The notes: generated from the letters alone by a model not told the origin. Numbered from the stretch's first letter, positions 6,755 to 28,375 are shown. The stretch is DNA of 29,004 nt from Pseudomonadota bacterium (GCA_036155355.1 JAYZVT010000244.1:1-29004); one strand, 5' to 3'. Translations and numbers: made by a program.

Positions 6755-6755
6755 T

Positions 6756-9304: not shown

Positions 9305-9321
9305 TGCCCGTTTTTTGGGCA
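9305..9321. promoter_or_regulatory. NtrC-like enhancer palindrome
   Basis: TGCCC-GTTTTTT-GGGCA: 17 bp with an AT-rich centre, similar to the TGCAC-N7-GTGCA consensus, about 100 bp upstream of the inferred sigma54 start site. Confidence 0.55.
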
Positions 9322-9421
9322 CAGCGTCGAAATTGTTCAGGATTTCATTGAAGCACGCGCGCGAGGGAGTGGCCAATCCCCCTTAAGGGGCGGTTCCGAT
9401 CAGGCGGAAAGTGACGGGGAT

Positions 9422-10324: not shown

Positions 10325-10343
10325 GGAGCGCCGCCGTTGTGCC

Positions 10344-11555
10344 TCAGCGCCTGGCCCTGCGCATCGAACCGGCACGCGAGGCGCGCGTGCGCGCCGCGAC
10401 ACGGCTGGCGTCCGGATACATCGTCACCATGGGCTCGTCGGTCAGGATGGCCTCGATATGCTCGCCGAAACCGTTGAAGCGGTTGGCGAACACGCGTCCG
10501 TAGGCGCCGATCTGGTGAATCTCGATGTAGTCACCCTCGCGCACGCAGTCCGGCAGCATGAAAGGGCCAGGCATGGTGTCCATGGCGTCGCAGGTGGGCC
10601 CGTAGAGACCGAAGGGCGCGAGCGGTCCCACCCCGCCCGGCTCCGCACGTACCAGCCGCGCCGGGAATGTGAATCCGGAAACGGCCGCGTCGAACAGTGT
10701 GCCGAAGGCGCCATCGTTGATGTAGAGATAGTTGCCGCGGCGGGAGTCCACGCGCACCAGCACGGACTCTGCCTCCGCGACGAGAGCTCGGCCCGGCTCG
10801 CACATGAGCTGGCAACGGTCGCCGACCGTCAGCTTGTCGCGCTGGGCGGCGATCTCGGACATGAAGGCAGAGAGCTGCGGCGGCTCGGAGCTGACATAGC
10901 GGCTGGGAAATCCGCCACCCACGTCGATGACATCGACGATGACGCCGGCCTTGCGGATCAGCTCGTCGGTCTGCATCAGCGCGGTGGCGTAGCTTTCCGG
11001 CTTCACCGACTGGGAACCGACATGGAAGGTGATGCCGAGCGTCTGAGCGGCACGGCGGGCGCGCACCAGCAGCGCCGGGGCATCTGCCTCGGCGACGCCA
11101 AACTTGCCCTCCAGTGGGATGAGGCTGTGCTTGTTGGAGCAGGCCAGGCGCACATACAGCGCCAAATCGGGGGCGTTGCCCGTCACCTGCAGGATCTTGT
11201 CCAGCTCATCCTGGCTGTCGAGGGAGAAATGGCGGATGCCCAGATTGAAATAGGCGCGCCGGATGGTCTCGCGCGACTTGATCGGATTCATGAAATAGAG
11301 CGTGGCGCCGGGGACGGCGGCCATGCGCTCGGCTTCGGCGAGCGAAGCGACGTCGAAATGGCGGATGCCTTCCTCGACCAGCGCACCGGTCAGGACGGCC
11401 GAGTCATTCGCCTTGACAGCGTAGGCAACGATGCCGGGAAAACGGTCGAGGAACCAGCGGGCCGCGCGTCTGGCGGCGTGGGGTCGCATACACAGGACGG
11501 GACGTTCGGGACGGCGGACGCGGATCAGGTCGGCAGCAGACTCGAATGTCTCCAT
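10344..11555 (-). CDS. Fold-type III PLP decarboxylase, ornithine/lysine decarboxylase-like
   Basis: YAVKAND (PLP Lys), FDVAS, GKFG, FHVGSQ, DVGGGFP, CEPGR, YGPTCD. Start ATG 11555 with GGAGG upstream. Confidence 0.9.
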   Translation of the reverse strand: METFESAADLIRVRRPERPVLCMRPHAARRAARWFLDRFPGIVAYAVKANDSAVLTGALVEEGIRHFDVASLAEAERMAAVPGATLYFMNPIKSRETIRRAYFNLGIRHFSLDSQDELDKILQVTGNAPDLALYVRLACSNKHSLIPLEGKFGVAEADAPALLVRARRAAQTLGITFHVGSQSVKPESYATALMQTDELIRKAGVIVDVIDVGGGFPSRYVSSEPPQLSAFMSEIAAQRDKLTVGDRCQLMCEPGRALVAEAESVLVRVDSRRGNYLYINDGAFGTLFDAAVSGFTFPARLVRAEPGGVGPLAPFGLYGPTCDAMDTMPGPFMLPDCVREGDYIEIHQIGAYGRVFANRFNGFGEHIEAILTDEPMVTMYPDASRVAARTRASRAGSMRRARR

Positions 11556-13397: not shown

Positions 13398-13451
13398 GGA
13401 ATTCTTTGGCGTAGCCCTTCGTGGTTGCGCCCGCCATGTGGCAGGTCGGAC

Positions 13452-16319
13452 ATGAAGCCGAAGGTCGAAATTTCCGCGCCGGTCGCCGACGAGATCAAGA
13501 CTTCGACCTGCTACATGTGCGCCTGCCGCTGCGGCATCAAGGTGTATCTGAAGGACGGCCAGGTCCGCTACATCGAAGGCAACCGCGACCATCCGGTGAA
13601 CCGGGGCGTGCTCTGCGGAAAGGGCTCGGCCGGCATTATGCAGCAATATTCCCCGGCGCGGCTGCGGGCGCCGCTGCTGCGCGTGGGCGAGCGGGGCAAG
13701 GGCGAGTTCAAGGAAATCTCCTGGGATGAGGCGCTCGGCCTTGCCACGCAGTGGCTTGGCGACGTGCGCGACTCCGATCCCAAGAAACTCGCCTTCTTCA
13801 CCGGGCGCGACCAGTCGCAGTCGTTGACCGGATGGTGGGCGATCCAGTTCGGGACGCCCAACTACGCCGCGCACGGCGGCTTCTGCTCGGTGAACATGGC
13901 CGCGGCGGGTCTCTACACCTTCGGCGGCTCCTTCTGGGAATTCGGCGAGCCTGACTGGGCGCATACGCGATACTTCATGCTGTTCGGCGTGGCTGAGGAC
14001 CACGCCTCCAATCCGATCAAGATGGGGATCGGCAAGCTCAAGGCTCGTGGCGCCAAGTTTGTTTCGATCAACCCGGTGCGGACAGGATATTCGGCCATTG
14101 CCGACGAATGGGTGGGAATCAAGCCGGGTACCGACGGGCTGTTCGTCGCCTCTCTGATCCGTGAAATGCTGAAAGCAGACAGGGTCGATGCTGAATACCT
14201 AGTGCGCTACACCAACGCGCCCTGGCTGGTGATTGACGACAAGGGCAGCGCCGATCACGGACTGTTCGCGCGCGACAGGAAGGGCAACCCGCTCGCCTTC
14301 GACAAGAAGACCGGGAAACTCACCAACGCCATGCTGCCCGACATCGCGCCGGCGATGATCGGTGACTTCAAGCTGAAGGACGGCCGCAAGGCCGTGCCGG
14401 CATTCCAGCTGCTGGCCAGGCGATTCCTGGACGTCCGTTACGCGCCCGAAAGAGTTGAAAAGGAAACCGGCGTCCCGGCGGACACCATCCGTCGGATCGC
14501 AGCGGAATTGGCCGAGGCGGCATTCGAGCAGGAGGTGGTCCTGGACGTTCCCTGGACCGACTGGGCGGGGCGCAAACATGACAAGATGATCGGCAGGCCG
14601 ATCTCCATGCATGCCATGCGCGGCATCTCGGCTCATTCCAACGGATTCCATACCTGCCGGCTGATCCATGTGTTGCAGATACTGCTTGGCAGCATCGATT
14701 GCCCGGGCGGCTTCCGCTACAAGCCGCCCTATCCCAAGCAGACGCCGCCTTGGCTCAAGCCTTCGGGCAAGCCGCGCGACGTCGCGCCTTCCGAGCCGCT
14801 GGGCGGCCCGCATCTGGGCTTCCCTCTCGGACCGGACGACCTGTTGGTGGACGAGAACGGCACGCCGGGACGCATCGACAAGGCGTTCAGCTGGGATGCG
14901 CCGCTCGCCGCGCACGGGCTGATGCACATGGTCATCACCAACGCCGGCAACCGGGACCCATACCCCATCGACGTGCTGTTCCTCTACATGGCCAACATGA
15001 GCTGGAACTCGACCATGAATGTGCCGGAGGTGCTCGGCCATCTGACGGCGCGGGACGAGAAGACCGGCGACTACAAGATTCCGAAGATCATCTATTCCGA
15101 CGCCTACTATTCCGAGATGGTCGCCTATGCCGACCTGATCCTGCCGGACACCACCTATCTGGAGCGGTGGGACTGCATCTCCCTGCTCGACCGGCCGGTA
15201 TCGGAAGCGGACGGGCCGGCGGACTCGATCCGCCAGCCCGTTATCAAACCCGACCGCGACGTGCGCGCCTTCCAGGAGGTGCTCATCGACCTTGGCGCGC
15301 GGTTGAAGCTGCCGGGATTCGTCACCGACAAGGGCAAGCCGAAATATCCCGGCGGCTATCCCGATTACATCGTCAACCATGAGCGCAAGCCGGGCATCGG
15401 TCCGCTGGCGGGCTGGCGGGGACAGAAGGGCGAAGCCTACGGAGTGGGCGCGCCATATACAAAGCAGCTTCAGCGCTACATTGAAAACGGCTGCTTCCAC
15501 TTCCACAAGCTGAAGCCGTCGATGCACTACTACAAGCACGCCAACCGGGAGTATCTCGACTGGGCACTGCAGATGGGTTATCGCGGCACGGCGACACCGA
15601 TCGTCTTCCAGCTCTACAGCGAGCCGATGCAGCATTTCCACCTGGCCGCCGAAGGACACGGTCCAGTCGTGCCGCCGAAGCATCATCGCCGGCGCATCGC
15701 CACGTTTTTCGATCCCCTTCCCTTCTGGTACGCACCCTTCGAGGGGTCGCTGCTCGACGACGGCGACTACCCCTTCGCCGCCGTAACGCAGCGGCCGATG
15801 GCCATGTATCACTCCTGGGGCTCGCAAAACGCCTGGCTGCGTCAGATCCACGGCGCCAACCGGCTGTATATCAACGCCGCGCGGGCGCGGGAGATGGACA
15901 TCGCCGACGACGACTGGGTGTGGATCATCGGCTACAAGGGCCGCGTGAAGGCGCAGGTGAAACTGCAGGAGGGGGTCAATCCGGACACGGTGTGGACCTG
16001 GAACGCCATCGGCAAGCGCTCCGGTGCATGGTCGCTCGACAAGGATGCGCCGGAGGCGACGCGCGGCTTCCTGCTCAATCACCTGATCTCCGAACTGCTG
16101 CCGGTGCGCCCCGGCGGATACCGCTATTCGAATTCCGACCCGGTGACGGGACAGGCGGCCTGGTACGATCTGCGCGTCCGCATCGAGAAGGCCGAGGCCG
16201 ACCCGGCCCGCACGGAGCCCTTCTACGAACCGATCGATACGCCGTGGAAGCGCGACCTGCCGGACACGTTGCGCTTCGGTGAGCAATTCCGTCGTGACCG
16301 GTGGAGACGCGGCTCATGA
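13452..16319 (+). CDS. soeA: Molybdopterin oxidoreductase catalytic subunit, SoeA-type sulfite dehydrogenase
   Basis: TCYMCACRCG...LCGKG Fe-S motif with no Tat signal; HGGFCSVNMAA; MHAMRGISAHSNGF; YHSWGSQNAWLRQ; followed by DmsB- and DmsC-like genes. Confidence 0.85.
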   Translation: MKPKVEISAPVADEIKTSTCYMCACRCGIKVYLKDGQVRYIEGNRDHPVNRGVLCGKGSAGIMQQYSPARLRAPLLRVGERGKGEFKEISWDEALGLATQWLGDVRDSDPKKLAFFTGRDQSQSLTGWWAIQFGTPNYAAHGGFCSVNMAAAGLYTFGGSFWEFGEPDWAHTRYFMLFGVAEDHASNPIKMGIGKLKARGAKFVSINPVRTGYSAIADEWVGIKPGTDGLFVASLIREMLKADRVDAEYLVRYTNAPWLVIDDKGSADHGLFARDRKGNPLAFDKKTGKLTNAMLPDIAPAMIGDFKLKDGRKAVPAFQLLARRFLDVRYAPERVEKETGVPADTIRRIAAELAEAAFEQEVVLDVPWTDWAGRKHDKMIGRPISMHAMRGISAHSNGFHTCRLIHVLQILLGSIDCPGGFRYKPPYPKQTPPWLKPSGKPRDVAPSEPLGGPHLGFPLGPDDLLVDENGTPGRIDKAFSWDAPLAAHGLMHMVITNAGNRDPYPIDVLFLYMANMSWNSTMNVPEVLGHLTARDEKTGDYKIPKIIYSDAYYSEMVAYADLILPDTTYLERWDCISLLDRPVSEADGPADSIRQPVIKPDRDVRAFQEVLIDLGARLKLPGFVTDKGKPKYPGGYPDYIVNHERKPGIGPLAGWRGQKGEAYGVGAPYTKQLQRYIENGCFHFHKLKPSMHYYKHANREYLDWALQMGYRGTATPIVFQLYSEPMQHFHLAAEGHGPVVPPKHHRRRIATFFDPLPFWYAPFEGSLLDDGDYPFAAVTQRPMAMYHSWGSQNAWLRQIHGANRLYINAARAREMDIADDDWVWIIGYKGRVKAQVKLQEGVNPDTVWTWNAIGKRSGAWSLDKDAPEATRGFLLNHLISELLPVRPGGYRYSNSDPVTGQAAWYDLRVRIEKAEADPARTEPFYEPIDTPWKRDLPDTLRFGEQFRRDRWRRGS

Positions 16320-17065
16320 CCACGCTGCCGCAAACGACGGCGAAGAAGCTCGGTCTGGTTATCGACCTGGATACCTGCGTCGGCTGCCAGGCCTGCGCGA
16401 CAAGCTGCAAGGAGTGGAACACCGGCGGATATTCCGCTCCCCTCACCGACCAGAACCCCTATGGCGCGGATCAGCATGGCGCCTGGCTCAACCGCATTCA
16501 CAGTTTCGAGGCCGGCGAAGGCGATGCCAGCCGCACTGTGCATTTCCCGCGCTCCTGCCTGCATTGCGAGGAGCCCGACTGCGTGACCGTCTGCCCCACA
16601 GGAGCCTCCTACAAGCGCGAGGAGGACGGTATCGTCCTCGTCAACCCGGACACCTGCATCGGCTGCAAGCTGTGTTCATGGGCCTGCCCCTATGGTGCGC
16701 GCGAATATGACTACGGTCACGGCGTGATGAAGAAATGCACGCTCTGCGTCGATCGCATCTACAACGACAACCTGCTGCCCGAGGACCGCGTTCCCGCCTG
16801 CGTGCGCGCCTGTCCGACGGGCGCGCGGCATTTCGGCGACCTTGGCGATCCGTCGAGCGAGGTTTCCCAGCTGGTGCGCCGGCGCGGCGGCTTCGACCTG
16901 CTGCCGGAGATGGGATACAAGCCGGTCAACAAGTACCTGCCGCCACGCGAGCGGCGCGATGGGCGCGCCGCGAATGCTGCATCCACTGCATTGCCGGAGT
17001 CGGGCGGCGGCGCCTCCAGGCTCGACAAGCTGTTCGGCTGGGCCGACCGGCTGCTGTCGCGCTGA
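16316..17065 (+). CDS. soeB: 4Fe-4S ferredoxin subunit (SoeB/DmsB-like)
   Basis: ATGA overlap with soeA. CVGCQAC, CLHCEEPDCVTVCP, CIGCKLCSWACP, KCTLC...CVRACP. Confidence 0.87.
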   Translation: MTTLPQTTAKKLGLVIDLDTCVGCQACATSCKEWNTGGYSAPLTDQNPYGADQHGAWLNRIHSFEAGEGDASRTVHFPRSCLHCEEPDCVTVCPTGASYKREEDGIVLVNPDTCIGCKLCSWACPYGAREYDYGHGVMKKCTLCVDRIYNDNLLPEDRVPACVRACPTGARHFGDLGDPSSEVSQLVRRRGGFDLLPEMGYKPVNKYLPPRERRDGRAANAASTALPESGGGASRLDKLFGWADRLLSR

Positions 17066-17076
17066 AGGGGGCGGCG

Positions 17077-18018
17077 ATGCATCCCGCCTATTCGGTCATC
17101 TTCTTCACCACCGCGTCCGGCGCGGGCTACGGACTGCTGTCGCTGCTCCTCCTGTTTGCGCTGCTTGGGCTGGTCTCGCCGGACGTCTGGCTCGGGCTGA
17201 CCGGGTTCGGCCTCGCCTTTGTGCTGATCGTGGCGGGGCTGCTGTCCTCGACCGCACATCTGGGACGCCCCGAGCGGGCGTGGCGGGCCTTCTCGCAGTG
17301 GCGCAGCTCGTGGCTGTCGCGCGAGGGCGTGATGGCGGTTCTGACTTTCGCACCCGCCGGCATCGCCGCACTTGGCTGGGTCCTGCTTGGAGAGGTTTCG
17401 GGCGCATTGGCCTGGGCGGGCTGGGCGGCGATCCTGTGCGCGGGCATGACCGTCTATTGCACGGGCATGATCTATGCGTCGCTCAAGACGATCCGCCAGT
17501 GGCACCATCCCCTCGTCGCACTCAACTATGTGGTGCTGGCGCTGGCGACAGGTGCAGTACTTTTAGACACATTGCTGACTATGACCGGCCAGCCGTCGAG
17601 ACAAGCGACGTGGACCGCTGTTGCGGCACTTGCCATCGCGCTCGCGCTCAAACTCGCCTACTGGGCCAGCATCGACAGCGCCAACAAGAGCTACACCGTC
17701 GGACGCGCCACGGGCCTCGGGCGCTTCGGCAAGGTGCAGCCGCTTGACCCGCCGCATACGGAACCCAACTTCGTCATGCGGGAGATGGGCTACCGTGTCG
17801 GCCGCAAGCACGCGGCAAGGCTGCGTCTGATCGCGGCCCTGCTGGGATTTATTCTGCCCGCCGTGCTACTCGCGATCGCGGAGCAGGCGGGCGGCGCGCC
17901 ATGGCTCAACTCAATCGCAGTGGCGTCGGCCGCCGCGGGCGTAGTCGTGGAGCGCTGGCTGTTCTTTGCGGAAGCGGAACATGTGGTGATGCTCTATTAC
18001 GGCGCGGGAGCCGCCTGA
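17077..18018 (+). CDS. soeC: Membrane anchor subunit (SoeC/DmsC-like)
   Basis: MHPAYSVIFFTTASGAGYG, HLGRPERAWRAFSQWRSSWLSREG, ERWLFFAEAEHVV; multiple hydrophobic segments. Confidence 0.87.
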   Translation: MHPAYSVIFFTTASGAGYGLLSLLLLFALLGLVSPDVWLGLTGFGLAFVLIVAGLLSSTAHLGRPERAWRAFSQWRSSWLSREGVMAVLTFAPAGIAALGWVLLGEVSGALAWAGWAAILCAGMTVYCTGMIYASLKTIRQWHHPLVALNYVVLALATGAVLLDTLLTMTGQPSRQATWTAVAALAIALALKLAYWASIDSANKSYTVGRATGLGRFGKVQPLDPPHTEPNFVMREMGYRVGRKHAARLRLIAALLGFILPAVLLAIAEQAGGAPWLNSIAVASAAAGVVVERWLFFAEAEHVVMLYYGAGAA

Positions 18019-18030
18019 CGGGAACTGCCT

Positions 18031-19929
18031 TCAGTTGCCCTGCGCCTGCTTGCGGCTGAGCTGCGGATTGCCGCCATTCTGCGTCACCGGCTGCTGCAAC
18101 AGCCCGAAGGACTTGCGCGCGGCAAGTCGCACCATATGCGCCGTGTAGGCATAGAGCTCTACCGCATCGACGGCGTTGTCGGCGTTGCCGATCGGGGCCA
18201 GGTCGGCGCGGCCGGCAAGGCCCTCAATGAGGTAGCGGGTGAACAGGCCGATACCGTATCGCGGGTCGTCGATCGTGCGCTGATCGCCCGACGCGGCGGC
18301 CATAACGGTCAGGCCCGGCGAAGGACTGCGCGGAAGTACTGATGTCCGCATCGCGGGAAGATTGGGCGGATAGACGATATCGCTGATGTCGCGCCCGAAC
18401 TCGGCCTCAAGCAGGACGAGCGAAGACTTCATACCGAGCGCGGCGACGCGGTCATAAAGCGTGGACAGGGGATAGCCGGTCTGCGCCGCCCGATGGGGAA
18501 GCGTGTCCACTGGCAGGAGAAAACGCTCCGACTGGTCCGGCAGGGTCGCGCCGTGACCGGCGAAATAGATGAACAGTCTCTCCGCGCCACGCCGCTTCAA
18601 CGCGGCGGCCAGCTCACCAGCACCGCCATCGCCAAACACTCGCCTGAAATCGTCGAGCGAAGCGTCCCGCAGATCGATGACGTTCTCGGCCTTTATTCCC
18701 AGATGCTCGGTGAGCAGTGCGTAAAAGGCGCCCGCATTGTTGTGTGCGCTGCCGTTGACCTCGATGCCGCCGCGATAGGACTTGTTGCCTATAACGACTG
18801 CGAAGTCCTTTTCGTGCCCCAGTCCATTGGAGAAGGGCCGGTAGAGTTCCCGCACCCGGGTGAAGGCAGCGCGACCGGCGGCGCCTGGCTGCGACCACCG
18901 CGGCAGCTGGGTGGGCGGACGCGAGCACAAGGACACGTTGGTCTCGCGTTCAATGAGCAAAATGTCGTCGAGGGGAAGATGCGAGTTTATCTGCAGGCAG
19001 GACTTGCACCACTCGACGACGCGATTGGCTTCATATGAAGCGATCTCCTTCGGCCCCAGCTCACGCGGCACCGGCAGGCAGTTGTCATGGCAGGCCTTGA
19101 GTTGCGGGCGCGCCCCATAGGCGCCGGTGACCAATTCCATGAGGTCGGGCGGCAAGCACTGCGCTTCGGCGGCGGCAAACAGGCGGGGCTGGGCCGGGGT
19201 CGAACCCTCGCCAGTCACAGGATCAGCCGGGCGGGCGGAGGCGACGTAGGTACCCAGCTCCCGCTGGGTCTCCGGGCAGAGATCGAAGAGACGCAGCTGT
19301 GTCTTCAGCTCGAGCGCGCCCTTGGTCGAAGCGGCCACATTGTAGTCCTTCTTGAAAAACCAGAAGGCGGTCCAGAAGGCCGATGTCGGGGTCGCGGCCG
19401 GCTCTCCCTTGAGATAGCCGGCCTCGATCATGCAGCGCTGGATCAGCGCCATGTCGGAGGTCAGCAGCGGCTCTTCGCCGGGCTTGCGGTCTATTCCGGC
19501 GTGCAACTGGGGATGGATGCACTGATCGCCCTGGGGTACATGCCCGGCCCGGCAGACGCACTTCTGCTCGGCCGGCGACCAGCGCTTGGTCTCGTCGCAG
19601 GCTTGCGCCAACTGCACGCACTTGTCATCGACAAGACCGTGGCCCTCGGCCACGCAGATGCACTTCTTCAATCCGTGCGAGTAGACCATCGGCGCCTCGC
19701 AAAGAGGCTGGGGCGCCGGCGCGGCGACCGGGGGACGCCTGAAGCGTCTGACCTGCGGCTCGGGCTGCTGATAGGGACTGAAGAAAGGCGAATAGTAATA
19801 TTGCTGCGCCAGTTGCAGGCGCTGCGGCGAGAACCGTGGTTCAGCTTTGGCGGGCAAGGCCGCAAGTGTCAGTTGGGCAGCGAGGACGGCTACAAACCCA
19901 CAAAGTGCGGACCTCATTCCCACACGCAT
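18031..19929 (-). CDS. Exported protein: Cys-rich repeats + peptidoglycan-binding-like segment + caspase-like (C14) domain lacking the catalytic Cys
   Basis: Signal peptide; two C-x12-C-x-C-x10/11-C units; LIQRCMIEAGYL...FWTAFWFFKKDY resembles PG_binding_1; FAVVIGNKSY...IYFAGHG (His kept) ...VLLEAEF (Glu where D-[AS]-C has Cys). Confidence 0.75.
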   Translation of the reverse strand: MRVGMRSALCGFVAVLAAQLTLAALPAKAEPRFSPQRLQLAQQYYYSPFFSPYQQPEPQVRRFRRPPVAAPAPQPLCEAPMVYSHGLKKCICVAEGHGLVDDKCVQLAQACDETKRWSPAEQKCVCRAGHVPQGDQCIHPQLHAGIDRKPGEEPLLTSDMALIQRCMIEAGYLKGEPAATPTSAFWTAFWFFKKDYNVAASTKGALELKTQLRLFDLCPETQRELGTYVASARPADPVTGEGSTPAQPRLFAAAEAQCLPPDLMELVTGAYGARPQLKACHDNCLPVPRELGPKEIASYEANRVVEWCKSCLQINSHLPLDDILLIERETNVSLCSRPPTQLPRWSQPGAAGRAAFTRVRELYRPFSNGLGHEKDFAVVIGNKSYRGGIEVNGSAHNNAGAFYALLTEHLGIKAENVIDLRDASLDDFRRVFGDGGAGELAAALKRRGAERLFIYFAGHGATLPDQSERFLLPVDTLPHRAAQTGYPLSTLYDRVAALGMKSSLVLLEAEFGRDISDIVYPPNLPAMRTSVLPRSPSPGLTVMAAASGDQRTIDDPRYGIGLFTRYLIEGLAGRADLAPIGNADNAVDAVELYAYTAHMVRLAARKSFGLLQQPVTQNGGNPQLSRKQAQGN

Positions 19930-20084: not shown

Positions 20085-21020
20085 TCATTTCACCAACTGG
20101 TACTCGACGCGCCGGTCGAAGGCGTAGCGCTCTTCCTCGGAATATTTCGCCGGATCATCGGGCACGAAGGGCGCACGTTCGCCCAGGCCGACGACCTCGA
20201 TGTTGCCCTTGTACCCGTTGGCAAGCAGATAGCCCTTCACCGCTTCCGCGCGCGCCAGGGACAGGCCGAGATTATAGCCGTCGTTCCCGCGCGGGTCGGT
20301 ATGACCGATCAGCTTCACATGTGCGACTGAGTGATCGCCCAGATAGGCGAGGATGTCCGCGACCGCCTTCTCGCCATCGGGAGTCAGTACGGCGGCGTCA
20401 TATTCGAACCGCACAGGGACCGGCACCGACTCGGCGGTGAAATTGCGGAAGTTCGGCGAGCCGGCGCCGCTGACCTTGCCGCGGAATCGGCGGGTAGCGA
20501 CGTAGACCGGGGCCAGCGCGCGGGCCTGGTAGGCGAGCTTGGCCACACGCTCCTCATCCTCCTTCGCCGGCGGCTTGGGGTTGAGCGCCGTATCACGCAT
20601 GTCATCGAGCGCGGATTCGTAGGCCCTGACCGCCTCGCCATACTGCTTGGCCCCATATTGGGCATCGCCCAGCGCAACCATCACCTGCCAGGGTTGGCCG
20701 TAGGACGCCGCCTGTTTCAATTGATCGAGCGCAATCGTACCGCCGCCACCTGCATCGGCCTGCATCTTCTTCAGGCTGGCAAGCGCGAGCACGCGTCCGA
20801 CGCGGGCGCGATACTGTCCGTCGCAGCTGGTATCGGCCAGCATCCGGGAATGCAGATCGGGGAACCGGGCCAAATCGGCGGCGCCTATGGCCTCGCGCAG
20901 GTCCTTGTCCAGGACCGTACAATCGGCAAGAGCCGCCCCTGGAATAAGGACGGCTCCTGCAAGAATGATGGGGAGGGCGCGGAGCGCCCTCCCCTTTGTC
21001 GTTGGCGTCGAGGCACTCAT
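20085..21020 (-). CDS. Exported OmpA-family peptidoglycan-binding protein with N-terminal TPR-like helical domain
   Basis: Signal peptide; ALGDAQYGAKQYGEAVRAYESAL (TPR-like); VRFEYDAAVL...IGHTDPRGNDGYNLGLSLARAEAVK...DRRVE (OmpA C-terminal). Confidence 0.85.
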   Translation of the reverse strand: MSASTPTTKGRALRALPIILAGAVLIPGAALADCTVLDKDLREAIGAADLARFPDLHSRMLADTSCDGQYRARVGRVLALASLKKMQADAGGGGTIALDQLKQAASYGQPWQVMVALGDAQYGAKQYGEAVRAYESALDDMRDTALNPKPPAKEDEERVAKLAYQARALAPVYVATRRFRGKVSGAGSPNFRNFTAESVPVPVRFEYDAAVLTPDGEKAVADILAYLGDHSVAHVKLIGHTDPRGNDGYNLGLSLARAEAVKGYLLANGYKGNIEVVGLGERAPFVPDDPAKYSEEERYAFDRRVEYQLVK

Positions 21021-23539
21021 TTCACCTCGACCGTGATGGCTGTCCGCGACAGGACCGTCGGCTTCGGCGCCGCCTTGCCGTCCTTGATCGCGGCCTTGCC
21101 TTCGGCGACCTTCTCCTTGCCCTCGACCACGATCTGACGGGTGAGGAACTCGCGATACTGGCCGACGTCAGTGAAAGCGCGGGTCTTGAAGTCGTGCTTG
21201 ATGCCGTCAACGAGCTTGCTGTCGGCATTGCACACGGCGATCACCGTCTCCTTGCCCTTGTCCTTCAGGCGCAGCTGGAAGGGTGCCTTGGCACCTGGCA
21301 ACTTCACCTCCTTGCCAGCAGCGATGAGATTGTCCTGCTGGAACTTGTTGGGGAAGATGACGGTGCCGACGCCCTTGCCATCAACGTTGATGAGCGTCAG
21401 GTTGCAGTTCTCCTTCGACGTAATGCTGAGCTGGAGCAGTTCCCCGACGTCGTACACGGACTTGTCGGAGAGCAGAGCCAGGTCGAACTCGGCCTGCTTG
21501 CCCTTGGGCTTGTCGTCGCCCACCTTGGCCACGTCAGCCTTCGCGGCATCGCCGCCGGTGTCCACGCGAAGGTCGTCAGAGACCTTCTCGATGACCTCGG
21601 CGAAGCGCGCCTCGAACTGCTCGCGCGGCAGCACACCCTGCTCGAGACGACGCTTGGTCCGGAAGGACTCGCCGCCATCGGCCGCGAGACCCTCGGCAAG
21701 CTGCTCGCTGGAGATGCCGTACTCGGCCGCCGCAACGCGCAGGTCAAGCGCCTTCTCATACTGCTTGGAGAGGAAGTTGATGCTCTCCACGCCCGACTGC
21801 TGGGAGTCGAGGTCCGGATCGAGACCAGCACGCAGCATGGCCGTGCGGAAGCGGTTGTAGTCGTCGTCGAGGAGCTTGTTCATCTCCGCGACTTCGGGAT
21901 ACAGCGCCTTCACCTTTTCACGGGTGTCGCGATCGAAGGTACGGTCCGTAAACACATGCTTGCGGATTTCGTCCGTCGCACGCCGGATGCCCTGGTTGTG
22001 GCAGCCGAAGCAGGAGATGCCGTTGGTGACGGCACGGTCGAGCTGACTGTCATCGAGGACGATCTCGGTCGGACCCTTCTCCAGGCGCTTGCCGTCAGCG
22101 GTGTTCAGGTAATAGCCCTGGAAACCGTTAGGCAGGCTGAAAATGGTCTCGCCACCGTCTTCCTTGAAGGCGTTCGGGCCCTTGGGACCGAGCGGGCGCA
22201 CGAACAGGCTCTGCTCGGGCCTGTCACCCTTGAAGTCGTAGGAGGTCCAGAAATAGCCGGTGTTGATCGAGTGACGCTCGATCAGACGGTTATGCTTGGA
22301 CACGCCCGACTTCTGGAAGCCCGCACGGGCGGCGCGGAACTTCTCGATGTTCTCGGTCACGTCGACGCCAAAGTCCTTCTGAAGCTGCTGGAAGTTGTCC
22401 GGGAGCTTCAGGAGATCGTAATAGAGCGGCGGCCGCGACGCGGTGAAGGCAAACCAGTCGCCACGGATCCAGGATATGGGCGTGTCGGTGATCTGCTTGA
22501 CCGTGTCATAGGTCGTCGTATCGGGACGGTTGGCATAGGGGTAGGACTTGATGATCGTGTCCCAGTCCTTGGCCTCCCACTTCAGGTCGTCCAGATTGAA
22601 GGCAATGATGGTATTGTCCTTGTCGATCGTCCGCATCTTTAGGACGTCCGACTGGCGGCTGAGACTGTTCAGCAGCTTCACCACGCCCTGACGCAGACGC
22701 ACCAGGTTCTCCTCCTTCTCGCAAACGTTGTAGAAGTGAGAGAGCGTGATGTAGCGCATGCCCTTGCGGCGATGGTCTTGTTGGGCATTCAGGTCGGCCG
22801 CGATCGACTCGACGATGTCGGCGCTGGCGATCGGCTTGCGGTCGCACTTGGGCGGCGCAAGCGAAACGATCCAGTCCGAAATGGCCTTAACCTCTTCGAC
22901 CGTCGGCTCATCTCCGCCGGAGAATTCCTGGCGGACGTCATACGGCATGGTGCCGTCGAGCAATGTCTTGAAGAGGCGCGAGCCCTCCGGCAACCCCGCG
23001 ACCACGAGGTTCGCATCCTTGGCGACCTCGTCGAGTTGCAGGACGTTGCCGAAATTCTTGGCCGGCTTTTCGCGCTCGAGACGGCCGATCTGATGGCAGC
23101 GGGCGCAATGCTTGTCGAGCGCCTTGAATGCCTTCAGTGCGACCGGATCCGTGGGCTCCGCGATGGCCGCGGCCTGAACGGGCGCGGGAGCTGGAGCGGG
23201 AGCCGGTGCCGGTTCAGGCGCCTGGGCCTGGACAGGCTCAGGGGCCGGCGCGGGAGCCGGTGCCTGGACCTGTGCTGGCGCTGGCTCTGGAGCGGGCGCC
23301 TGCACCTGGGCCGGAGCAGGCTCGGGAGCCTGCGCCTGTGCGGGCGCAGCTTCGGCCGGCTTGGCCTCCTCGGGCTTTGCTCCCGCTTCGGGAGCCGTGC
23401 CCTGGACCGTCTGGATGGCTTCCGCCGCCCTGTCGGCCGGTTGTTTGCCTTCGGCGGCATATGCGCCGATAACGCCCACGACGCCTGCGACGGCGAGGGC
23501 GAGTACGGATATCGATGTCAGTCCTATGCGCGATCTCAT
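21017..23539 (-). CDS. Large exported c-type cytochrome: Pro/Ala linker, planctomycete-type cytochrome c domain, unknown central domain with second CxxCH, C-terminal DUF4384-like domain
   Basis: GGAGG RBS; signal/anchor peptide; CARCH (23093-23107) followed by G.PEGSRL...GTMP...EVKAISDWI; CFGCH (21998-22012); DKSVYDVGELLQLSITSKENCNLTLINVDGKGVGTVIFPN. Confidence 0.75.
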   Translation of the reverse strand: MRSRIGLTSISVLALAVAGVVGVIGAYAAEGKQPADRAAEAIQTVQGTAPEAGAKPEEAKPAEAAPAQAQAPEPAPAQVQAPAPEPAPAQVQAPAPAPAPEPVQAQAPEPAPAPAPAPAPVQAAAIAEPTDPVALKAFKALDKHCARCHQIGRLEREKPAKNFGNVLQLDEVAKDANLVVAGLPEGSRLFKTLLDGTMPYDVRQEFSGGDEPTVEEVKAISDWIVSLAPPKCDRKPIASADIVESIAADLNAQQDHRRKGMRYITLSHFYNVCEKEENLVRLRQGVVKLLNSLSRQSDVLKMRTIDKDNTIIAFNLDDLKWEAKDWDTIIKSYPYANRPDTTTYDTVKQITDTPISWIRGDWFAFTASRPPLYYDLLKLPDNFQQLQKDFGVDVTENIEKFRAARAGFQKSGVSKHNRLIERHSINTGYFWTSYDFKGDRPEQSLFVRPLGPKGPNAFKEDGGETIFSLPNGFQGYYLNTADGKRLEKGPTEIVLDDSQLDRAVTNGISCFGCHNQGIRRATDEIRKHVFTDRTFDRDTREKVKALYPEVAEMNKLLDDDYNRFRTAMLRAGLDPDLDSQQSGVESINFLSKQYEKALDLRVAAAEYGISSEQLAEGLAADGGESFRTKRRLEQGVLPREQFEARFAEVIEKVSDDLRVDTGGDAAKADVAKVGDDKPKGKQAEFDLALLSDKSVYDVGELLQLSITSKENCNLTLINVDGKGVGTVIFPNKFQQDNLIAAGKEVKLPGAKAPFQLRLKDKGKETVIAVCNADSKLVDGIKHDFKTRAFTDVGQYREFLTRQIVVEGKEKVAEGKAAIKDGKAAPKPTVLSRTAITVEVK
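23174..23359 (-). repeat. Intragenic low-complexity (A)PEPAPAQVQAP-type repeat encoding a Pro/Ala/Gln linker
   Basis: Translation PAEAAPAQAQAPEPAPAQVQAPAPEPAPAQVQAPAPAPAPEPVQAQAPEPAPAPAPAPAPVQ. Confidence 0.85.
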
Positions 23540-23683: not shown

Positions 23684-25204
23684 CTATTTAACGATTTCAT
23701 AGCGCAGTGTCGCAACCGACCAACTGGCGAATTCCGTGTTCTTGGCGGCATCATTGGCATGCAATGGTGTCCCGAGCGCGGCGGCCAGCTTGGGCAGAAA
23801 CGATTCGACCGCTTCCTGGCGGGGTATTACCTCGATGGAGCGCGTCTTCACTTCCTTGCCGAAGTCCACCTGGTCGCGAGTGACGATGGCGACGATATAG
23901 CCCGAACTGGGGGCCGTGGCGTTGAACTTGAGGCCATAATAGTCGTCCGGCACCGATAATGGCGAGCCGGCGAGCAGACGGCCGGTATTCGCGGTCTCGT
24001 ATTTACGCGAGAACTGGTTGGGGTAGAGCTGGACGAGCTTTCCGTCGTCGGACAGGTCGAGCAGGATCAGATAACCCTCATGCGGGCTTGTCACCCGGAA
24101 GCGGATATCTCGCGTGCCGACATGCACCGGTGACGGAGGGTGAAGTTCGACAACTACGCCATGCACATTGCCCTTGGCGAGGAAGTCTGTCACCTGTCCG
24201 ATATCAAGCTTCGCCGGCGGCGCATCCGGCGCGATGGCGGCCTTCTCCTTGCCAAGAGCAGACGCCGCATGTGCGCCGGCAGGGTCCAGCTTCGGCGTCA
24301 AACCCATCTCGCAGCGGTCCGCATGGGACCTGCAATATGCGGCGGAGCCGGTGCTGACGTAGCTCAGAAGCTCGGCATTGGAGATGACGCCATTGCCGTT
24401 CTTGTCGGCTTTGGCCTCGCCGAGGGCTTCGACATAGAGTTTGGTGAAGACGCCATGAGCCTTGCCACCCGCGGCATCCACAAGCGCAACCTGGCTGCCG
24501 GCGACAGCCGACCATACCGACAGGCTGCCGCTGGCCAGAGTCGTCTCGACGAAACCGCCCTCTTCCGCCTTCTGGGCCGCGGCGGCAGCCTCGACCACGA
24601 TTGAACGCGTCGCGGTAGCTATCTGCGGCGTGCGCGCGGCGACGACGATCTTGCCGCCGGACTTGGCATCGCGCGTGACCGCGCCTGAATGTCCTGAATC
24701 TATTACGACAGTGACGTTGCGACCCTCGAGCACTTTGAGTGCCTCGGAGAACTCGTCATCACTCAGCAGGCCGGAAATCTCCGGCTTCGGCCCCGAGCCT
24801 TCCACCTTTGAATCGAACAAGGCCAACGCCTCGTCGAGGCCGTCGGTCTCGTCGCCATTGGTATCCTTCTGGAAGTAACCCATGCCCGCATAATAGAAGT
24901 AGGCACGCTCGCCGGGCTTGGTTCCCTTGCCAAGCCAGTCCGCTACGTTGGCCAGCACTGCCGCCTTGGTCGCCTCGGCGTCCTTCAGCACCTTTATGTC
25001 ACCGGCGGCAAAGCCGAGTTTGGACGTGAGCAACGCCTTGATCGCCTCGACGTCGTTGATTGCCGAAGGCATTTCTAGGCGCAGCTTCTCGTCGGCGTAT
25101 GCATCCACGCCAACAAGCAGCGCCCTGTCGGCGGCGGCGCATGCGGCTGGAGAGGCGAGATGAATGGCGAGACCTGCGACGGGTATGAGGGCGAGCAGGC
25201 GCAT
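23684..25204 (-). CDS. Exported caspase-family (C14) pseudo-protease + DUF4384-like domain
   Basis: Signal peptide; RALLVGVDAY...NDVEAIKALL...ATKAAV; FYYAGMG and VIDSGHSG where AGHG and DSCHSG are expected; C-terminal FRVTSPHEGYLILLDLSDDGKLVQLYPN. Confidence 0.82.
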   Translation of the reverse strand: MRLLALIPVAGLAIHLASPAACAAADRALLVGVDAYADEKLRLEMPSAINDVEAIKALLTSKLGFAAGDIKVLKDAEATKAAVLANVADWLGKGTKPGERAYFYYAGMGYFQKDTNGDETDGLDEALALFDSKVEGSGPKPEISGLLSDDEFSEALKVLEGRNVTVVIDSGHSGAVTRDAKSGGKIVVAARTPQIATATRSIVVEAAAAAQKAEEGGFVETTLASGSLSVWSAVAGSQVALVDAAGGKAHGVFTKLYVEALGEAKADKNGNGVISNAELLSYVSTGSAAYCRSHADRCEMGLTPKLDPAGAHAASALGKEKAAIAPDAPPAKLDIGQVTDFLAKGNVHGVVVELHPPSPVHVGTRDIRFRVTSPHEGYLILLDLSDDGKLVQLYPNQFSRKYETANTGRLLAGSPLSVPDDYYGLKFNATAPSSGYIVAIVTRDQVDFGKEVKTRSIEVIPRQEAVESFLPKLAAALGTPLHANDAAKNTEFASWSVATLRYEIVK

Positions 25205-25205
25205 G

Positions 25206-26789
25206 TCAGCCTCCCGACCCGGTATAGATGTCGAGCACGCCCACCTGCACGTCTCCCGACGCGAGTACGGCTTCGAGCACCGTGCGCAGCGGTCCCGTGT
25301 CCTTTGCCGTCTTCATGGCGGCAAGCACCGCGTGAAGGTCGCTCAGGATGGTCTTGGAAAAGATGGCGACGAGGTGTTCCGCACCATAGGGCGGGTTCGC
25401 GACCTTGAAGCTCTCCACGAAGGCACCGCCGCGCCAGTCTTTCTCCGCCTCACCCTTTCTCTTTGGATCGGGAATGAAGAATTCCACGCGGCCGTCCGGC
25501 GGCATGTTGAACATGGTCAGATGCGGATAGGCCGCACCGGCGATCTTCACATCCACAGTCTCGCCGATGTTGTATCGCTTGTTGCCGCTGGGCAGCGAAA
25601 CGTCCACCGCGTCGGACGCGGCCCTGTGCTTGAGCAGCTTGAGCGCGGCCCACTTGGTGGCCACGGGCACAACATTGCCGGCATTGACGCCGAGCGCCAC
25701 GACGCCGCCCACCTTGTGCTCGATTGTGCCGGATGCCGCATACCAGATGAGATCCGCCTTCGACTTGTCCGCTACCACCTCCACGAAGGGGACATCTCCG
25801 AGCGGTCCGGCGGTGCCGCCGTCGATGGCGATGCGCAGCGGTTCGGAGGTGTTATCGGGCTTTTCCGGCTTTGCGCTGCGGACATTGAACAGTCCGAATG
25901 AGCGCGCGCGTAGTGGCGCGACCTGGGGCGTCTGCTGGCTTTCCACCTGGGCGTGAACGGCCGGCACGACGAAGCCCAGAAGCTCGACCTGCGTCACCAC
26001 GCCATCGCCGTCTCGATCGGCGCGACCCTCGAGCGCGCGCGCCAGCGCCCAGCTCAATGCGCCGCGCTTCTGCCCGTCGATGGTGACTTCGGGCGTGAGC
26101 TGGTCTTCCGACGTGGCGCCGACGAAAGTGATGTTCTGGAAATCGTCTTCCTTCAACTTGCCTGCCTCGGGCGGAGGAAATTTCAGCAGGTCATCAGTTA
26201 TCTCGCCGAATTTGCCGTTGCGGAAGCGAACCGTCTCGGCGCGGGCGCTACGGTTCATGGTGCCGGAATGGCAGGAATCGGCAGCAAAGACGACACGGAC
26301 ATTCTTCTTGTCCGCCTTCTGCAGCCACTCGGCAATTTCATCGTCGATGATACGCTCCCGCGTACCCTTGCCCTGCGTGGCATATCCGGCGAGCAGGAAA
26401 TTCTCGTTCTTCCCATCGGCCTCGTCGTGACGGCCGGGCGGCTCGGGCTCCTGGCTGCCATGACCGGCAAAGCTGAAGAAGATCGTGTCGCCATCCTGCG
26501 CAACACCGAGCAATTCGTGATAAGCGTTCTCGATATTCGCCTTGGTAGCCTCATGATTGAGGAACTTGCGGATCTGGACCGCGCCTGCGGTCTTCAGCGC
26601 TTTGGCAATATCCTCCGCGTCGTGGACTGCTCCCTCCAGGTCGTTGCGTTCGCCGATATAGTCGTCGATGCCGACGACGAGGCCGAAGATAGCGGGTTCG
26701 CGCGCTTGCAGGCTGGTGGGACCTTCAATGCAGAGCAAGGCGGCAGCGAAGGCCGCGAGCCAGGCGCACCCGGTCCTTGTCCTGCTCAT
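25206..26789 (-). CDS. Exported caspase-family (C14; meta/orthocaspase-like) protease with intact dyad + DUF4384-like domain
   Basis: Signal peptide; GLVVGIDDY..LEGAVHDAE; FSFAGHGSQ (His 26460-26462); ADSCHSG (Cys 26271-26273); RGALSWALARALEGRADRDGDG; KRYNIGETV...HLTMFNMPPDGRVEFFIP. Confidence 0.87.
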   Translation of the reverse strand: MSRTRTGCAWLAAFAAALLCIEGPTSLQAREPAIFGLVVGIDDYIGERNDLEGAVHDAEDIAKALKTAGAVQIRKFLNHEATKANIENAYHELLGVAQDGDTIFFSFAGHGSQEPEPPGRHDEADGKNENFLLAGYATQGKGTRERIIDDEIAEWLQKADKKNVRVVFAADSCHSGTMNRSARAETVRFRNGKFGEITDDLLKFPPPEAGKLKEDDFQNITFVGATSEDQLTPEVTIDGQKRGALSWALARALEGRADRDGDGVVTQVELLGFVVPAVHAQVESQQTPQVAPLRARSFGLFNVRSAKPEKPDNTSEPLRIAIDGGTAGPLGDVPFVEVVADKSKADLIWYAASGTIEHKVGGVVALGVNAGNVVPVATKWAALKLLKHRAASDAVDVSLPSGNKRYNIGETVDVKIAGAAYPHLTMFNMPPDGRVEFFIPDPKRKGEAEKDWRGGAFVESFKVANPPYGAEHLVAIFSKTILSDLHAVLAAMKTAKDTGPLRTVLEAVLASGDVQVGVLDIYTGSGG

Positions 26790-27736
26790 TTTCCGGTTTC
26801 CTTGGAAGGGCGGCTGCTGGCGATGGCGGGTATCGACTTGAGATAGGCAGCGATGGCCGCACGATCCTCCGCGGTAAGCTTTGCGGTGTTGGTTTGCACG
26901 GCGGCCATTGGCCCGCCAAAGGCGTCGAATGACGGCGTCAGGCCGCTCTCAAGCGAATAGGCGATCTCGTCCTCGCTCCAGGCGCCAATGCCGGTCTTGT
27001 CGGGCGTGATATTGGGGATGTAGCCAACGCCTTCAGGAGAAGGCCCACCAGACAGCTTCGCGGCAGTGATAATGCCGCCGAAAATATTCCGGGGCGAATG
27101 GCATTCGCCGCAATGGCCGGGACCTTCAACGAGATAGCCGCCGCGATTGATCTTGTCGCTGGCGCTTGCAATCGGCTGATAGGCTTGCCCATCGAGGAAC
27201 AACAACTTCCACAGGCCGAGTCCGCGCCGCAGGCGGAACGGTAGCGCGAGGTCATGTGCCGGAGCCTCAACGTCCGAGGCCGGCAGAGTGTCCAAGAATG
27301 CCTTGAGGTCCAGCAGGTCCGTCGGCTTCATGCGCTGATAGGACGTGTAGGGAAACGCGGGGTAGTAGTGACTGCCATCCGGCGAGACACCGCGCGCCAT
27401 GGCGTTGACAAATTCCAGCGGCGTCCAGCCGCCGATGCCATGCGTCCTGTCGGACGAGATATTGGGTGCGTAGAAAGTGCCGAACGGCGTTTTCAGGCAG
27501 CGGCCACCGGCAAGCAGCTTCGGATCGCCATATTTCGGATCATCACACTTGGACGAGGCCGGAGCGGCATGGCACGAGGCGCAACCGCCCGCATAGAACA
27601 TGTATTCGCCGTTCTTGACGTCAGGCGTGTGACTGGGAAGCGCCGTCGCGGCAATGGTCCTGGGCGCCGTCAGGACATAGAAGACGACTGCGCCCAGGAT
27701 TCCGAGGATGACGACCGCCCACACAAGGCGTCGCAT
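26786..27736 (-). CDS. Membrane-anchored diheme cytochrome c
   Basis: GGAGGG RBS; N-terminal hydrophobic helix; GGCASCH and GHCGECH; TPFGTFYAPNISSD; HYYPAFPYTSY; PNITPD. Confidence 0.9.
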   Translation of the reverse strand: MRRLVWAVVILGILGAVVFYVLTAPRTIAATALPSHTPDVKNGEYMFYAGGCASCHAAPASSKCDDPKYGDPKLLAGGRCLKTPFGTFYAPNISSDRTHGIGGWTPLEFVNAMARGVSPDGSHYYPAFPYTSYQRMKPTDLLDLKAFLDTLPASDVEAPAHDLALPFRLRRGLGLWKLLFLDGQAYQPIASASDKINRGGYLVEGPGHCGECHSPRNIFGGIITAAKLSGGPSPEGVGYIPNITPDKTGIGAWSEDEIAYSLESGLTPSFDAFGGPMAAVQTNTAKLTAEDRAAIAAYLKSIPAIASSRPSKETGK

Positions 27737-27802
27737 GCTGCCCTCCATAAACAAATCTCGTGCCGCGCGACCCCGGATCGCGCGGACGCAACATGCTTGC
27801 GA

Positions 27803-28249
27803 CTACTTCTTCACGCGATAGGCTTCGTGGCAGCTCTTGCAGTTCTTCACAAGCTCGCCGAACGCAGCCTTGTAGGCGCCAATACCCTGCTTTGCCGCTT
27901 CTTCGCCCTGGGCCGCGGCAACCTTCAACTTCTCAGCCGCAGCCACGAAGCCCGCCATGTCTTCCCAGATCTTGGGCGATGCTTCGGTTTCGCCACCGGT
28001 CTTGGACGTGTCGGGGAACAGCTTGACATACTGGTCGGGAACCGCAGCGATGGTCTTCATCGCCTCCGCCGCCTTGGCCTGGTCGAAATCGACCTTACCC
28101 GAAACCATTTCGGAAGCGGCCTTGGTCGATGCACCAACCTGCTTCATCAACTCCTTGCGCGCCTTGATCGGATCGTCGGCCGCGACTGCCGCCAAAGCGC
28201 CGAAAGCCACCGCTCCCACCAGAATGGCGGACCGTACCAGAATATTCAT
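27803..28249 (-). CDS. Cytochrome c'/c556 (class II four-helix-bundle cytochrome)
   Basis: Start ATG 28249 with GGGAG RBS; signal peptide; DPIKARKELM; SPKIWEDMAGF; C-terminal CKSCHEAYR. Confidence 0.9.
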   Translation of the reverse strand: MNILVRSAILVGAVAFGALAAVAADDPIKARKELMKQVGASTKAASEMVSGKVDFDQAKAAEAMKTIAAVPDQYVKLFPDTSKTGGETEASPKIWEDMAGFVAAAEKLKVAAAQGEEAAKQGIGAYKAAFGELVKNCKSCHEAYRVKK

Positions 28250-28356
28250 GCGTTTCTCCCAAGAGGCGTGATGGACGTATGCTGAACGGAATTCCACAAT
28301 TTTATTAGATCGCCACGATAACCGAGAAATCAAGCCCGGTAGCCATTTTTCTGGCA

Positions 28357-28375
28357 ATTGTTTGTGACAATCACA
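28357..28375. promoter_or_regulatory. Nested palindromes in the divergent intergenic region; candidate operator
   Basis: ATTGT-N5-ACAAT (28357-28371) overlapping TGTGA-N3-TCACA (28363-28375). Confidence 0.3.

Follow-up and report, generated by a model that had tools for sequence, protein, structure and literature searches.

An exported two-haem c-type protein with a possibly P460-like haem domain in an alphaproteobacterial caspase gene cluster

P0001 is a protein of 840 amino acids encoded on the minus strand of a 29,004-nucleotide stretch of DNA from a Pseudomonadota bacterium (GCA_036155355.1, JAYZVT010000244.1:1-29004; the whole stretch is called the window below), where the list of open reading frames and the translation assign it a single reading frame, 21017-23539. 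We put at about even the chance that P0001 is an exported two-haem c-type cytochrome with a reactive, P460-like second haem (haem 2), which reports the redox or nitrosative state to an assembly of envelope proteins. An earlier reading of the sequence alone (the sequence-only reading) had proposed a two-haem layout, and both attachment motifs, CARCH for haem 1 and CFGCH for haem 2, are present and invariant in all 67 relatives of the conservation alignment (34-52% identity), as are about 20 further residues. The other elements named in that reading, namely the signal segment, the distal Met-Pro that accompanies CARCH, the core motifs and the DUF4384 domain, are all found as well.

In the mechanism proposed here, haem 1, with Met198 as distal ligand in a small class I or planctomycete-type domain, would act as an electron relay, and haem 2, as the reactive centre, would bind a small molecule of the periplasm or turn it over. 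Electrons would be exchanged through haem 1 with a membrane-anchored dihaem cytochrome c of the same gene cluster. The DUF4384 tail would hold the protein within an envelope assembly of OmpA-like and caspase-like proteins, and these would read its state. In this lineage the module would most likely report a redox or nitrosative condition rather than take part in bulk metabolism.

The core and the two haem sites

The conserved core comprises about 430 amino acids (residues ~234-665), and its middle sub-domain has the site for haem 2. The sequence-only reading had described an unrecognised domain of ~300 amino acids between the haems; it is indeed unrecognised, no Pfam or NCBIfam model being found for it, but it is larger, and it encloses haem 2 instead of separating the two haems. 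Pfam searches with four separate segments at E-value <= 10 gave nothing for the core, and with P0001 as a whole only DUF4384 was above its cut-off, the cytochrome c domain (139-227) being below it. An NCBIfam scan of the protein returned noise only, and PADLOC reported nothing for the gene. In solved structures, a single-sequence search gave no match, and a search with the family profile matched cytochrome c domains only, including that of FoxE (E-value = 5e-7).

The core motifs quoted in the sequence-only reading are the most conserved stretches among the relatives. Four residues of the N-terminal sub-domain (R262, N291, W321 and D361) are invariant, and the RLIERH motif in the haem-2 sub-domain may form a wall of this haem's pocket, to judge from its presumed position relative to the haem. 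Within this motif, R418 is present in 32 of 32 sequences, stand-alone forms included, E421 and R422 in 66 of the 67 relatives, and H423 in 62; Y or F takes the place of H423 in distant forms that keep the CxxCH. When stand-alone forms are counted, Tyr373, Ser411, Arg418, Gly428, the CxxCH and Gly517 are universal, and Asp361, Asp435, Arg526 and Arg639 are nearly so. The second CxxCH is retained in all nine relatives on viral contigs, including those without the cytochrome c domain. Because stand-alone cores that lack the cytochrome c domain retain this motif, the haem 2 site is what defines the core, and the haem 1 domain is its detachable partner.

No Met or Lys reaches 85% conservation anywhere in the core, and therefore a His/Met-ligated haem 2 and a lysine cross-link of the P460 kind are both unlikely. 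Judging from these conservation patterns, haem 2 is probably a ligand-reactive, His-only haem and not one of the peroxidase type. An electron-input haem combined with a second haem that has no Met partner, as the sequence-only reading suggested, fits these data: a distal Met is conserved for haem 1, and none is conserved in the core.

The same reading compared the layout with that of c-type peroxidases, and this part is not supported. A dihaem cytochrome c peroxidase-like protein (CCP/MauG, PF03150), in which a high-potential haem takes in electrons and the other haem is peroxidatic, would resemble P0001 in being exported and in having two CxxCH motifs, one haem being His/Met-ligated and the other without Met; furthermore, a c'-beta variant appears to be described as a peroxidase mimic in a reference cited in PMC11928373. 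However, PF03150 (CCP_MauG) gave no match at E-value <= 0.01, in the model the haem 2 site follows a five-stranded beta-sheet and is not housed in another domain of the class I cytochrome c kind, the two haem motifs are separated by 365 residues, and the order and spacing of the domains differ. A peroxidase of this type is thus very improbable.

By its fold, the haem-1 domain belongs to class I of the c-type cytochromes. Its PF00034 score in P0001 (18.8-20.1 bits) lies under the cut-off of 21.3, and PF07635 is absent from the Pfam matches of P0001; PF07635 was passed by 24 of 53 sampled relatives at E-value <= 1e-4.

At the N-terminus, a ribosome-binding site, GGAGG, stands about 7 nucleotides ahead of the ATG at 23539. 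The first 28 residues read as a Sec signal peptide, and P0001 would accordingly be exported. Attachment of c-type haem requires export. A Pro/Ala spacer follows, as the sequence-only reading had stated, but it is about 75 and not ~60 residues long; P, A, E, Q and V make up 85-100% of its 20-residue windows. A 36-bp tandem repeat (2.6 copies, 23247-23338) codes for part of this spacer, the length of which is highly variable among relatives (proteins of 716-980 amino acids). At the other end, a charged linker connects the conserved core to the C-terminal DUF4384 domain.

Resemblance to the P460 and cytochrome c'-beta proteins

In the P460 and cytochrome c'-beta proteins (P460/c'-beta), a His-only haem binds or converts nitric oxide (NO), carbon monoxide or hydroxylamine. 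An AlphaFold2 model of residues 125-690, built from a 67-sequence alignment, had a predicted local distance difference test score (pLDDT) of 93.0 and a predicted template modelling score of 0.89, and the haem-2 sub-domain refolded alone (369-574) had a pLDDT of 96.9. In the sub-domain model, five antiparallel strands lead to the CxxCH in a short helix and then to further helices; the predicted fold is thus a twisted, five-stranded antiparallel sheet with CxxCH after the last strand. Elsewhere, such an arrangement is known from P460/c'-beta proteins only. Structural comparison matched residues ~253-431 of the module model to cytochrome c'-beta and P460 proteins. For the sub-domain model, the top five among 48,161 representatives belong to the P460/c'-beta family, and among Foldseek's 1,000 best chains, when re-examined, 13 of the 13 top entries were P460/c'-beta proteins, after which came a fall to 3.6. 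On both sides, the alignments stop 10-17 residues past the haem His (His123 and His144 in the compared proteins, numbered as in PMC6427953). An hhalign comparison with 20 alphaproteobacterial PF16694 sequences gave an E-value of 9e-5 and a probability of 59% over 33 columns, which cover the last strand and the CxxCH only.

Several results weigh against this relationship. Foldseek searches of the PDB with the module and with the sub-domain gave no match at E-value <= 0.001; the sequence-only reading had suggested Foldseek as a check on the core. PF16694 did not match P0001, even at an E-value of 10 for residues 370-560. In the AlphaFold DB, Foldseek returned weak non-cytochrome entries (DUF4150, PKD) and not P460, and in the AlphaFold DB clusters and the ESM Atlas it returned unnamed family members and weak non-cytochrome entries, with no P460-named cluster. 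The match between the modelled fold and P460/c'-beta is only moderate and may represent very distant homology or convergence.

It is scarcely probable that the second CxxCH is a disulfide or metal site and that P0001 has one haem only, next to a binding domain of the non-haem kind. The non-cytochromes among the weak AlphaFold DB neighbours would agree with such a site, whereas the entire C-x-x-C-H, including its His, is invariant in the 67 relatives and in the nine from viral contigs, the protein would be exported to the compartment in which haem attachment takes place, and the motif occupies the position at which P460/c'-beta proteins bind haem. Both haems are probably attached, and haem 2 is presumably five-coordinate.

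The coordination of haem 2 could be different, since the universal Tyr373 or His423 could be its sixth ligand. In that case, both haems would be six-coordinate, haem 2 through His and either His423, Tyr373 or another residue, and P0001 would be only a wire or scaffold by which electrons move between the dihaem cytochrome and some other component of the envelope. The high conservation of these two residues, the fusion or linkage of the protein to other cytochromes and the moderate fold match are in line with this explanation. However, the conserved core of 430 amino acids far exceeds what an electron-transfer haem needs, the sole structural neighbours carry ligand-binding His-only haems (PMC11928373), and His423 gives way to Tyr or Phe in distant members with CxxCH. 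We regard a wire or scaffold as quite unlikely, and His423 as an obligatory sixth ligand is ruled out by these replacements. By analogy, the Arg-rich polar setting of haem 2 recalls the polar-pocket P460s more than the hydrophobic c'-beta proteins.

A genome-wide PF16694 search of the source genome (assembly 71% complete, 1% contamination) found only a gene other than that for P0001, on contig C308 (5730-6134; locus L023; E-value = 8e-18). The genome hence encodes a canonical PF16694 protein besides the cytochrome c' of the P0001 cluster. Adams et al. (2019) found none in which a P460/c'-beta protein and an alpha-type cytochrome c' occur together (PMC6427953).

The gene cluster, the dihaem cytochrome c and the tail

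The gene for P0001 belongs to a cluster on the minus strand (Table 1), in which the ATG of the OmpA-like gene overlaps the TGA of the P0001 gene as ATGA. Neighbourhoods were compared in 23 related loci, among them one from a metagenome-assembled genome at 65% identity and one from Labrys okinawensis. No partner is as constant as the dihaem cytochrome c, which is adjacent or in the cluster in 15 of the 23 loci; caspases are found in 11, cytochrome c' in 10 and OmpA in about 9-11 (directly downstream in L003, L034, L036, L039-L041, L043 and L045). The full order of cytochrome c', dihaem cytochrome c, caspase, caspase with DUF4384, P0001 gene and OmpA exists only in relatives of at least about 49% identity, including Labrys. 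The orthologue at L045:9303-10543 (G291:C2) is in two frames, with matches at 9788-10543 and 9318-9782, owing to a frameshift or a sequencing error.

In five genomes of the same taxonomic order, the dihaem cytochrome c and the module share one reading frame of 1100-1185 amino acids, with four CxxCH motifs and a DUF4384 end. The occurrence of fused and split forms suggests a single electron path made up of the dihaem cytochrome c and the two haems of P0001. The dihaem cytochrome c is probably the redox partner of P0001. Its homologues include the cytochrome subunits of membrane-bound dehydrogenases that act on fructose, alcohol and aldehyde (E-value = 2.5e-49). For haem attachment, a CcmC/F-type gene was found in the source genome.

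Table 1. Positions of P0001 features, cluster genes and in-frame fusions (window coordinates unless a locus is named)
Feature	Position	Strand	Remarks
Whole gene, 840 aa (P0001)	21017..23539	-	signal peptide, spacer, cytochrome c domain, core, linker, DUF4384 tail
Sec signal peptide (predicted), residues 1-28, hydrophobic, AYA end	23456..23539	-	sequence reading
Low-complexity Pro/Ala/Glu/Gln spacer, residues 50-125, ~75 aa	23165..23392	-	composition
Class I (planctomycete-type) cytochrome c domain with haem 1, residues 130-229	22853..23152	-	
CARCH, C145-H149, haem 1 attachment	23093..23107	-	invariant in 67/67 relatives
M198-P199, probable distal Met ligand of haem 1	22943..22948	-	Met in 63/67, Pro in 65/67 relatives
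N-terminal alpha/beta sub-domain of core, residues 234-368	22436..22840	-	model pLDDT >95; no Pfam match
Haem-2 sub-domain, residues 369-574	21818..22435	-	P460/c'-beta-like over roughly 374-555
RLIERH, R418-H423, second sheet strand, most conserved motif	22271..22288	-	candidate haem-2 pocket wall
CFGCH, C510-H514, haem 2 attachment	21998..22012	-	invariant in 67/67 relatives
C-terminal helical sub-domain of core, residues 575-665	21545..21817	-	model; invariant R639
DUF4384 (PF14326), residues 695-770	21230..21457	-	E-value 5e-17, 62.1 bits against a cut-off of 27
Cytochrome c' (class II), first cluster gene	27803-28357	-	PF01322 E-value 1.9e-30; 1a7v best solved relative, E-value 2.5e-22
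Membrane-anchored dihaem cytochrome c, 322 aa, CASCH + CGECH	26786-27754	-	
Caspase-like protein	25206-26789	-	
Caspase-like protein with DUF4384	23684-25204	-	
OmpA-like peptidoglycan-binding protein	20085-21020	-	Pfam OmpA E-value 4e-14
Third caspase-like protein	18031-19929	-	
In-frame fusions of dihaem cytochrome c and module	L048:7853-11335, L049:7825-11274, L050:7907-11206, L051:8700-12122 (-), L053:8737-12291 (-)		

The tail up to residue 840 is the same conserved C-terminal unit as the DUF4384 domain, with invariant C, P, N, F and G in the tail alignment (A5), and its structural neighbours are DUF4384 domains of cell-envelope proteins. The sequence-only reading linked P0001 to the caspases through this shared type of tail. 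Both proteins do match PF14326, but their domains are barely alike (24% identity over 34 amino acids between P0001 and the neighbouring caspase, E-value = 0.009), and DUF4384 is a generic cell-envelope domain that also occurs with CsgG, LPP20, PEGA and PKD. The link to the caspases is lineage-specific, and the closer relatives are tied to them by conserved gene order and not by the shared domain type. A recent common origin of the two DUF4384 tails in the window was considered and dropped, as the domains are barely similar. Prediction of a complex between residues 33-311 of the OmpA-like protein and the DUF4384 tail gave no answer (score 0.00), which counts neither for nor against an interaction.

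Adjoining the cluster, a molybdopterin oxidoreductase (964 amino acids) and a DmsC/NrfD-type anchor (427 amino acids) are encoded on the plus strand (13425-18018), their 3' ends facing the third caspase-like gene on the opposite strand; neither had a homologue in the 23 related loci. Upstream, the minus strand encodes a phage-type integrase, which has an Arm DNA-binding domain, as well as a transglutaminase-like protein (3119-4426 and 5945-7210), and the GC content rises from 0.54 to 0.62-0.66 over the first 4 kb of the window. This integrase neighbourhood and the GC shift suggest that an integrated element may border the region.

Distribution, possible function and comparison with known systems

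An exhaustive HMMER search with residues 125-690 against 1.84 billion representatives yielded 3,791 clusters (50% identity) at E-value <= 1e-3 and 1,540 at E-value <= 1e-30; among the matches listed, proteins ranged from ~290 (fragments) to 1,563 amino acids. A word-indexed search gave 904 matches. The closest relatives are full-length 'DUF4384 domain-containing proteins' of Hyphomicrobiales (Methyloceanibacter, Labrys), with 53-84% identity. The module occurs in Pseudomonadota, Planctomycetota, Myxococcota and Acidobacteriota, plus phage contigs, and the core was present in 22 of the 201 sampled genomes of the order.

The architectures differ widely. The module is fused behind an N-terminal Ser/Thr kinase, at times with FGE-sulfatase domains following, or behind a DnaJ or seven-transmembrane (7TM) domain, and it is also found ahead of WD40, TPR or LRR domains; in 13 of 53 sampled relatives it stands ahead of DUF4384, as in P0001. 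The smallest relatives seen are stand-alone cores of 335-466 amino acids in Planctomycetota and phage contigs. One of these, on the viral contig L031 (5401-6759; 452 amino acids, with CIACH kept), is directly followed by a small gene for a PSCyt1-like cytochrome c (6741-7256), and thus represents a split form of the module. The flanks of this core match phage families (phrog_874, endonuclease), and four similar contigs exist (L028-L030 and L032). Another viral or prophage contig encodes a relative of 1,426 amino acids (L024:5149-9429) that combines the module with leucine-rich repeats and an apparent type IX secretion tail, and this relative would be a form displayed on the surface.

Sensing is favoured because the family is fused elsewhere to Ser/Thr kinase, DnaJ and 7TM domains, and catalysis is favoured because the partner is of the dehydrogenase type and many polar residues are invariant. 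As an enzyme, P0001 would use its P460-like haem to oxidise or reduce a small substrate such as hydroxylamine, NO or a peroxide in the periplasm, electrons would reach the quinone pool by way of haem 1 and the dihaem cytochrome c, much as they do in membrane-bound dehydrogenases, and the caspase and OmpA genes would be merely co-located envelope genes. A His/Met relay haem plus an open haem, as P0001 seems to have, is the usual layout of multihaem enzymes. The in-frame fusion in five genomes of a partner related to dehydrogenase cytochrome subunits also agrees with an enzyme, the invariant polar residues (R418, E421, D435, S411, Y373, R526 and R639) suggest a precise active site, and P460s with polar pockets are catalytic (PMC11928373). 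On the other hand, the fusions with cytoplasmic Ser/Thr kinases, DnaJ, 7TM, WD40, TPR and LRR domains point to signalling or recognition, the family is found in only the 22 genomes mentioned above, the cross-linking Lys of catalytic P460 is not conserved, and the neighbours are proteases and not metabolic genes. An enzyme is possible, if somewhat unlikely, and nearly as much weight is given to it as to sensing.

Further points count against P0001 as a reporter to the caspase-like and OmpA-like proteins. The constant dihaem partner of the dehydrogenase type suits catalysis at least as well as sensing. Caspases are absent from 12 of the 23 loci, and the distant members lie in unrelated neighbourhoods. 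A search of the 71%-complete genome for CcmE found none, and in the literature searched, experimental work on any family member was absent; searches on DUF4384, PSCyt1 and orthocaspase/cytochrome c found no study of the family. A broader proposal, that the core is a third, multi-domain branch of the P460/c'-beta fold and an extracytoplasmic small-molecule or redox sensor in bacteria and some phages, which serves kinase signalling in other phyla and gates periplasmic caspase-like proteases in this alphaproteobacterial lineage, seems to us unlikely.

For this module of at least 3,791 clusters, we could not find a family model, a solved structure or a paper. What is new here is the P460/c'-beta-like reading, together with the split form on a phage contig and the forms in which the module is fused in frame to the dihaem cytochrome c. 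If haem 2 is of the P460/c'-beta type, a fold thought to be limited to two small families is enlarged by an extensive multi-domain branch. For hundreds of membrane Ser/Thr kinases there would then be a candidate haem-based sensor on the outside, and for the periplasmic caspase clusters of Hyphomicrobiales a testable input. Should the gating of caspases also be true, caspase homologues would be under the control of c-type cytochromes in a bacterial pathway. Among the carriers, Labrys species such as L. okinawensis and L. portucalensis are available in culture.

Compared with known systems, the haem-1 domain shares the CxxCH ... Met-Pro pattern with the PSCyt1 'planctomycete cytochrome c' proteins (PF07635), and PSCyt1 proteins of Planctomycetota and Myxococcota contain structural twins of the whole core (template modelling score 0.85-0.93). 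However, P0001 is under the PF07635 and PF00034 cut-offs, its core has no Pfam model, and the well-known PSCyt partners (PSD/DUF1553-type) are absent. The dihaem cytochrome c of the cluster is a homologue of the first two haem domains in the cytochrome subunits of membrane-bound, quinone-reducing dehydrogenases, namely those for fructose, alcohol, aldehyde and glucose (7w2j_C, 8gy2_B, 8gy3_A). These subunits partner a catalytic or reactive subunit, as the dihaem cytochrome c, fused to the module in five genomes, also appears to do; they have three haem domains instead of two, and their partner is a flavo- or quinoprotein, whereas that of the dihaem cytochrome c is a haem protein.

The P460/c'-beta proteins (PF16694; 2je3, 6hiu, 6amg, 6hih, 7ead/8brk and 7s5o) are, like P0001, exported c-type haem proteins; their haem domain has one CxxCH, which comes after an antiparallel sheet of five strands and close to the domain's end, and a Met sixth ligand is lacking. 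P0001 differs from them in having no PF16694 sequence match and in long insertions between strands 3 and 4 and ahead of the CxxCH, and from P460 proper, which has a porphyrin-cross-linking Lys, in that its sheet region has no Lys conserved at >= 85%. They are stand-alone proteins of ~135-160 amino acids and mostly homodimers, whereas the haem-2 sub-domain of P0001 is part of a 430-residue core in an 840-residue protein, flanked by alpha/beta and helical sub-domains, with a relay cytochrome before it and DUF4384 after it. In short, we class P0001 as a c-type cytochrome whose pocket is P460-like and whose multi-domain setting is new.

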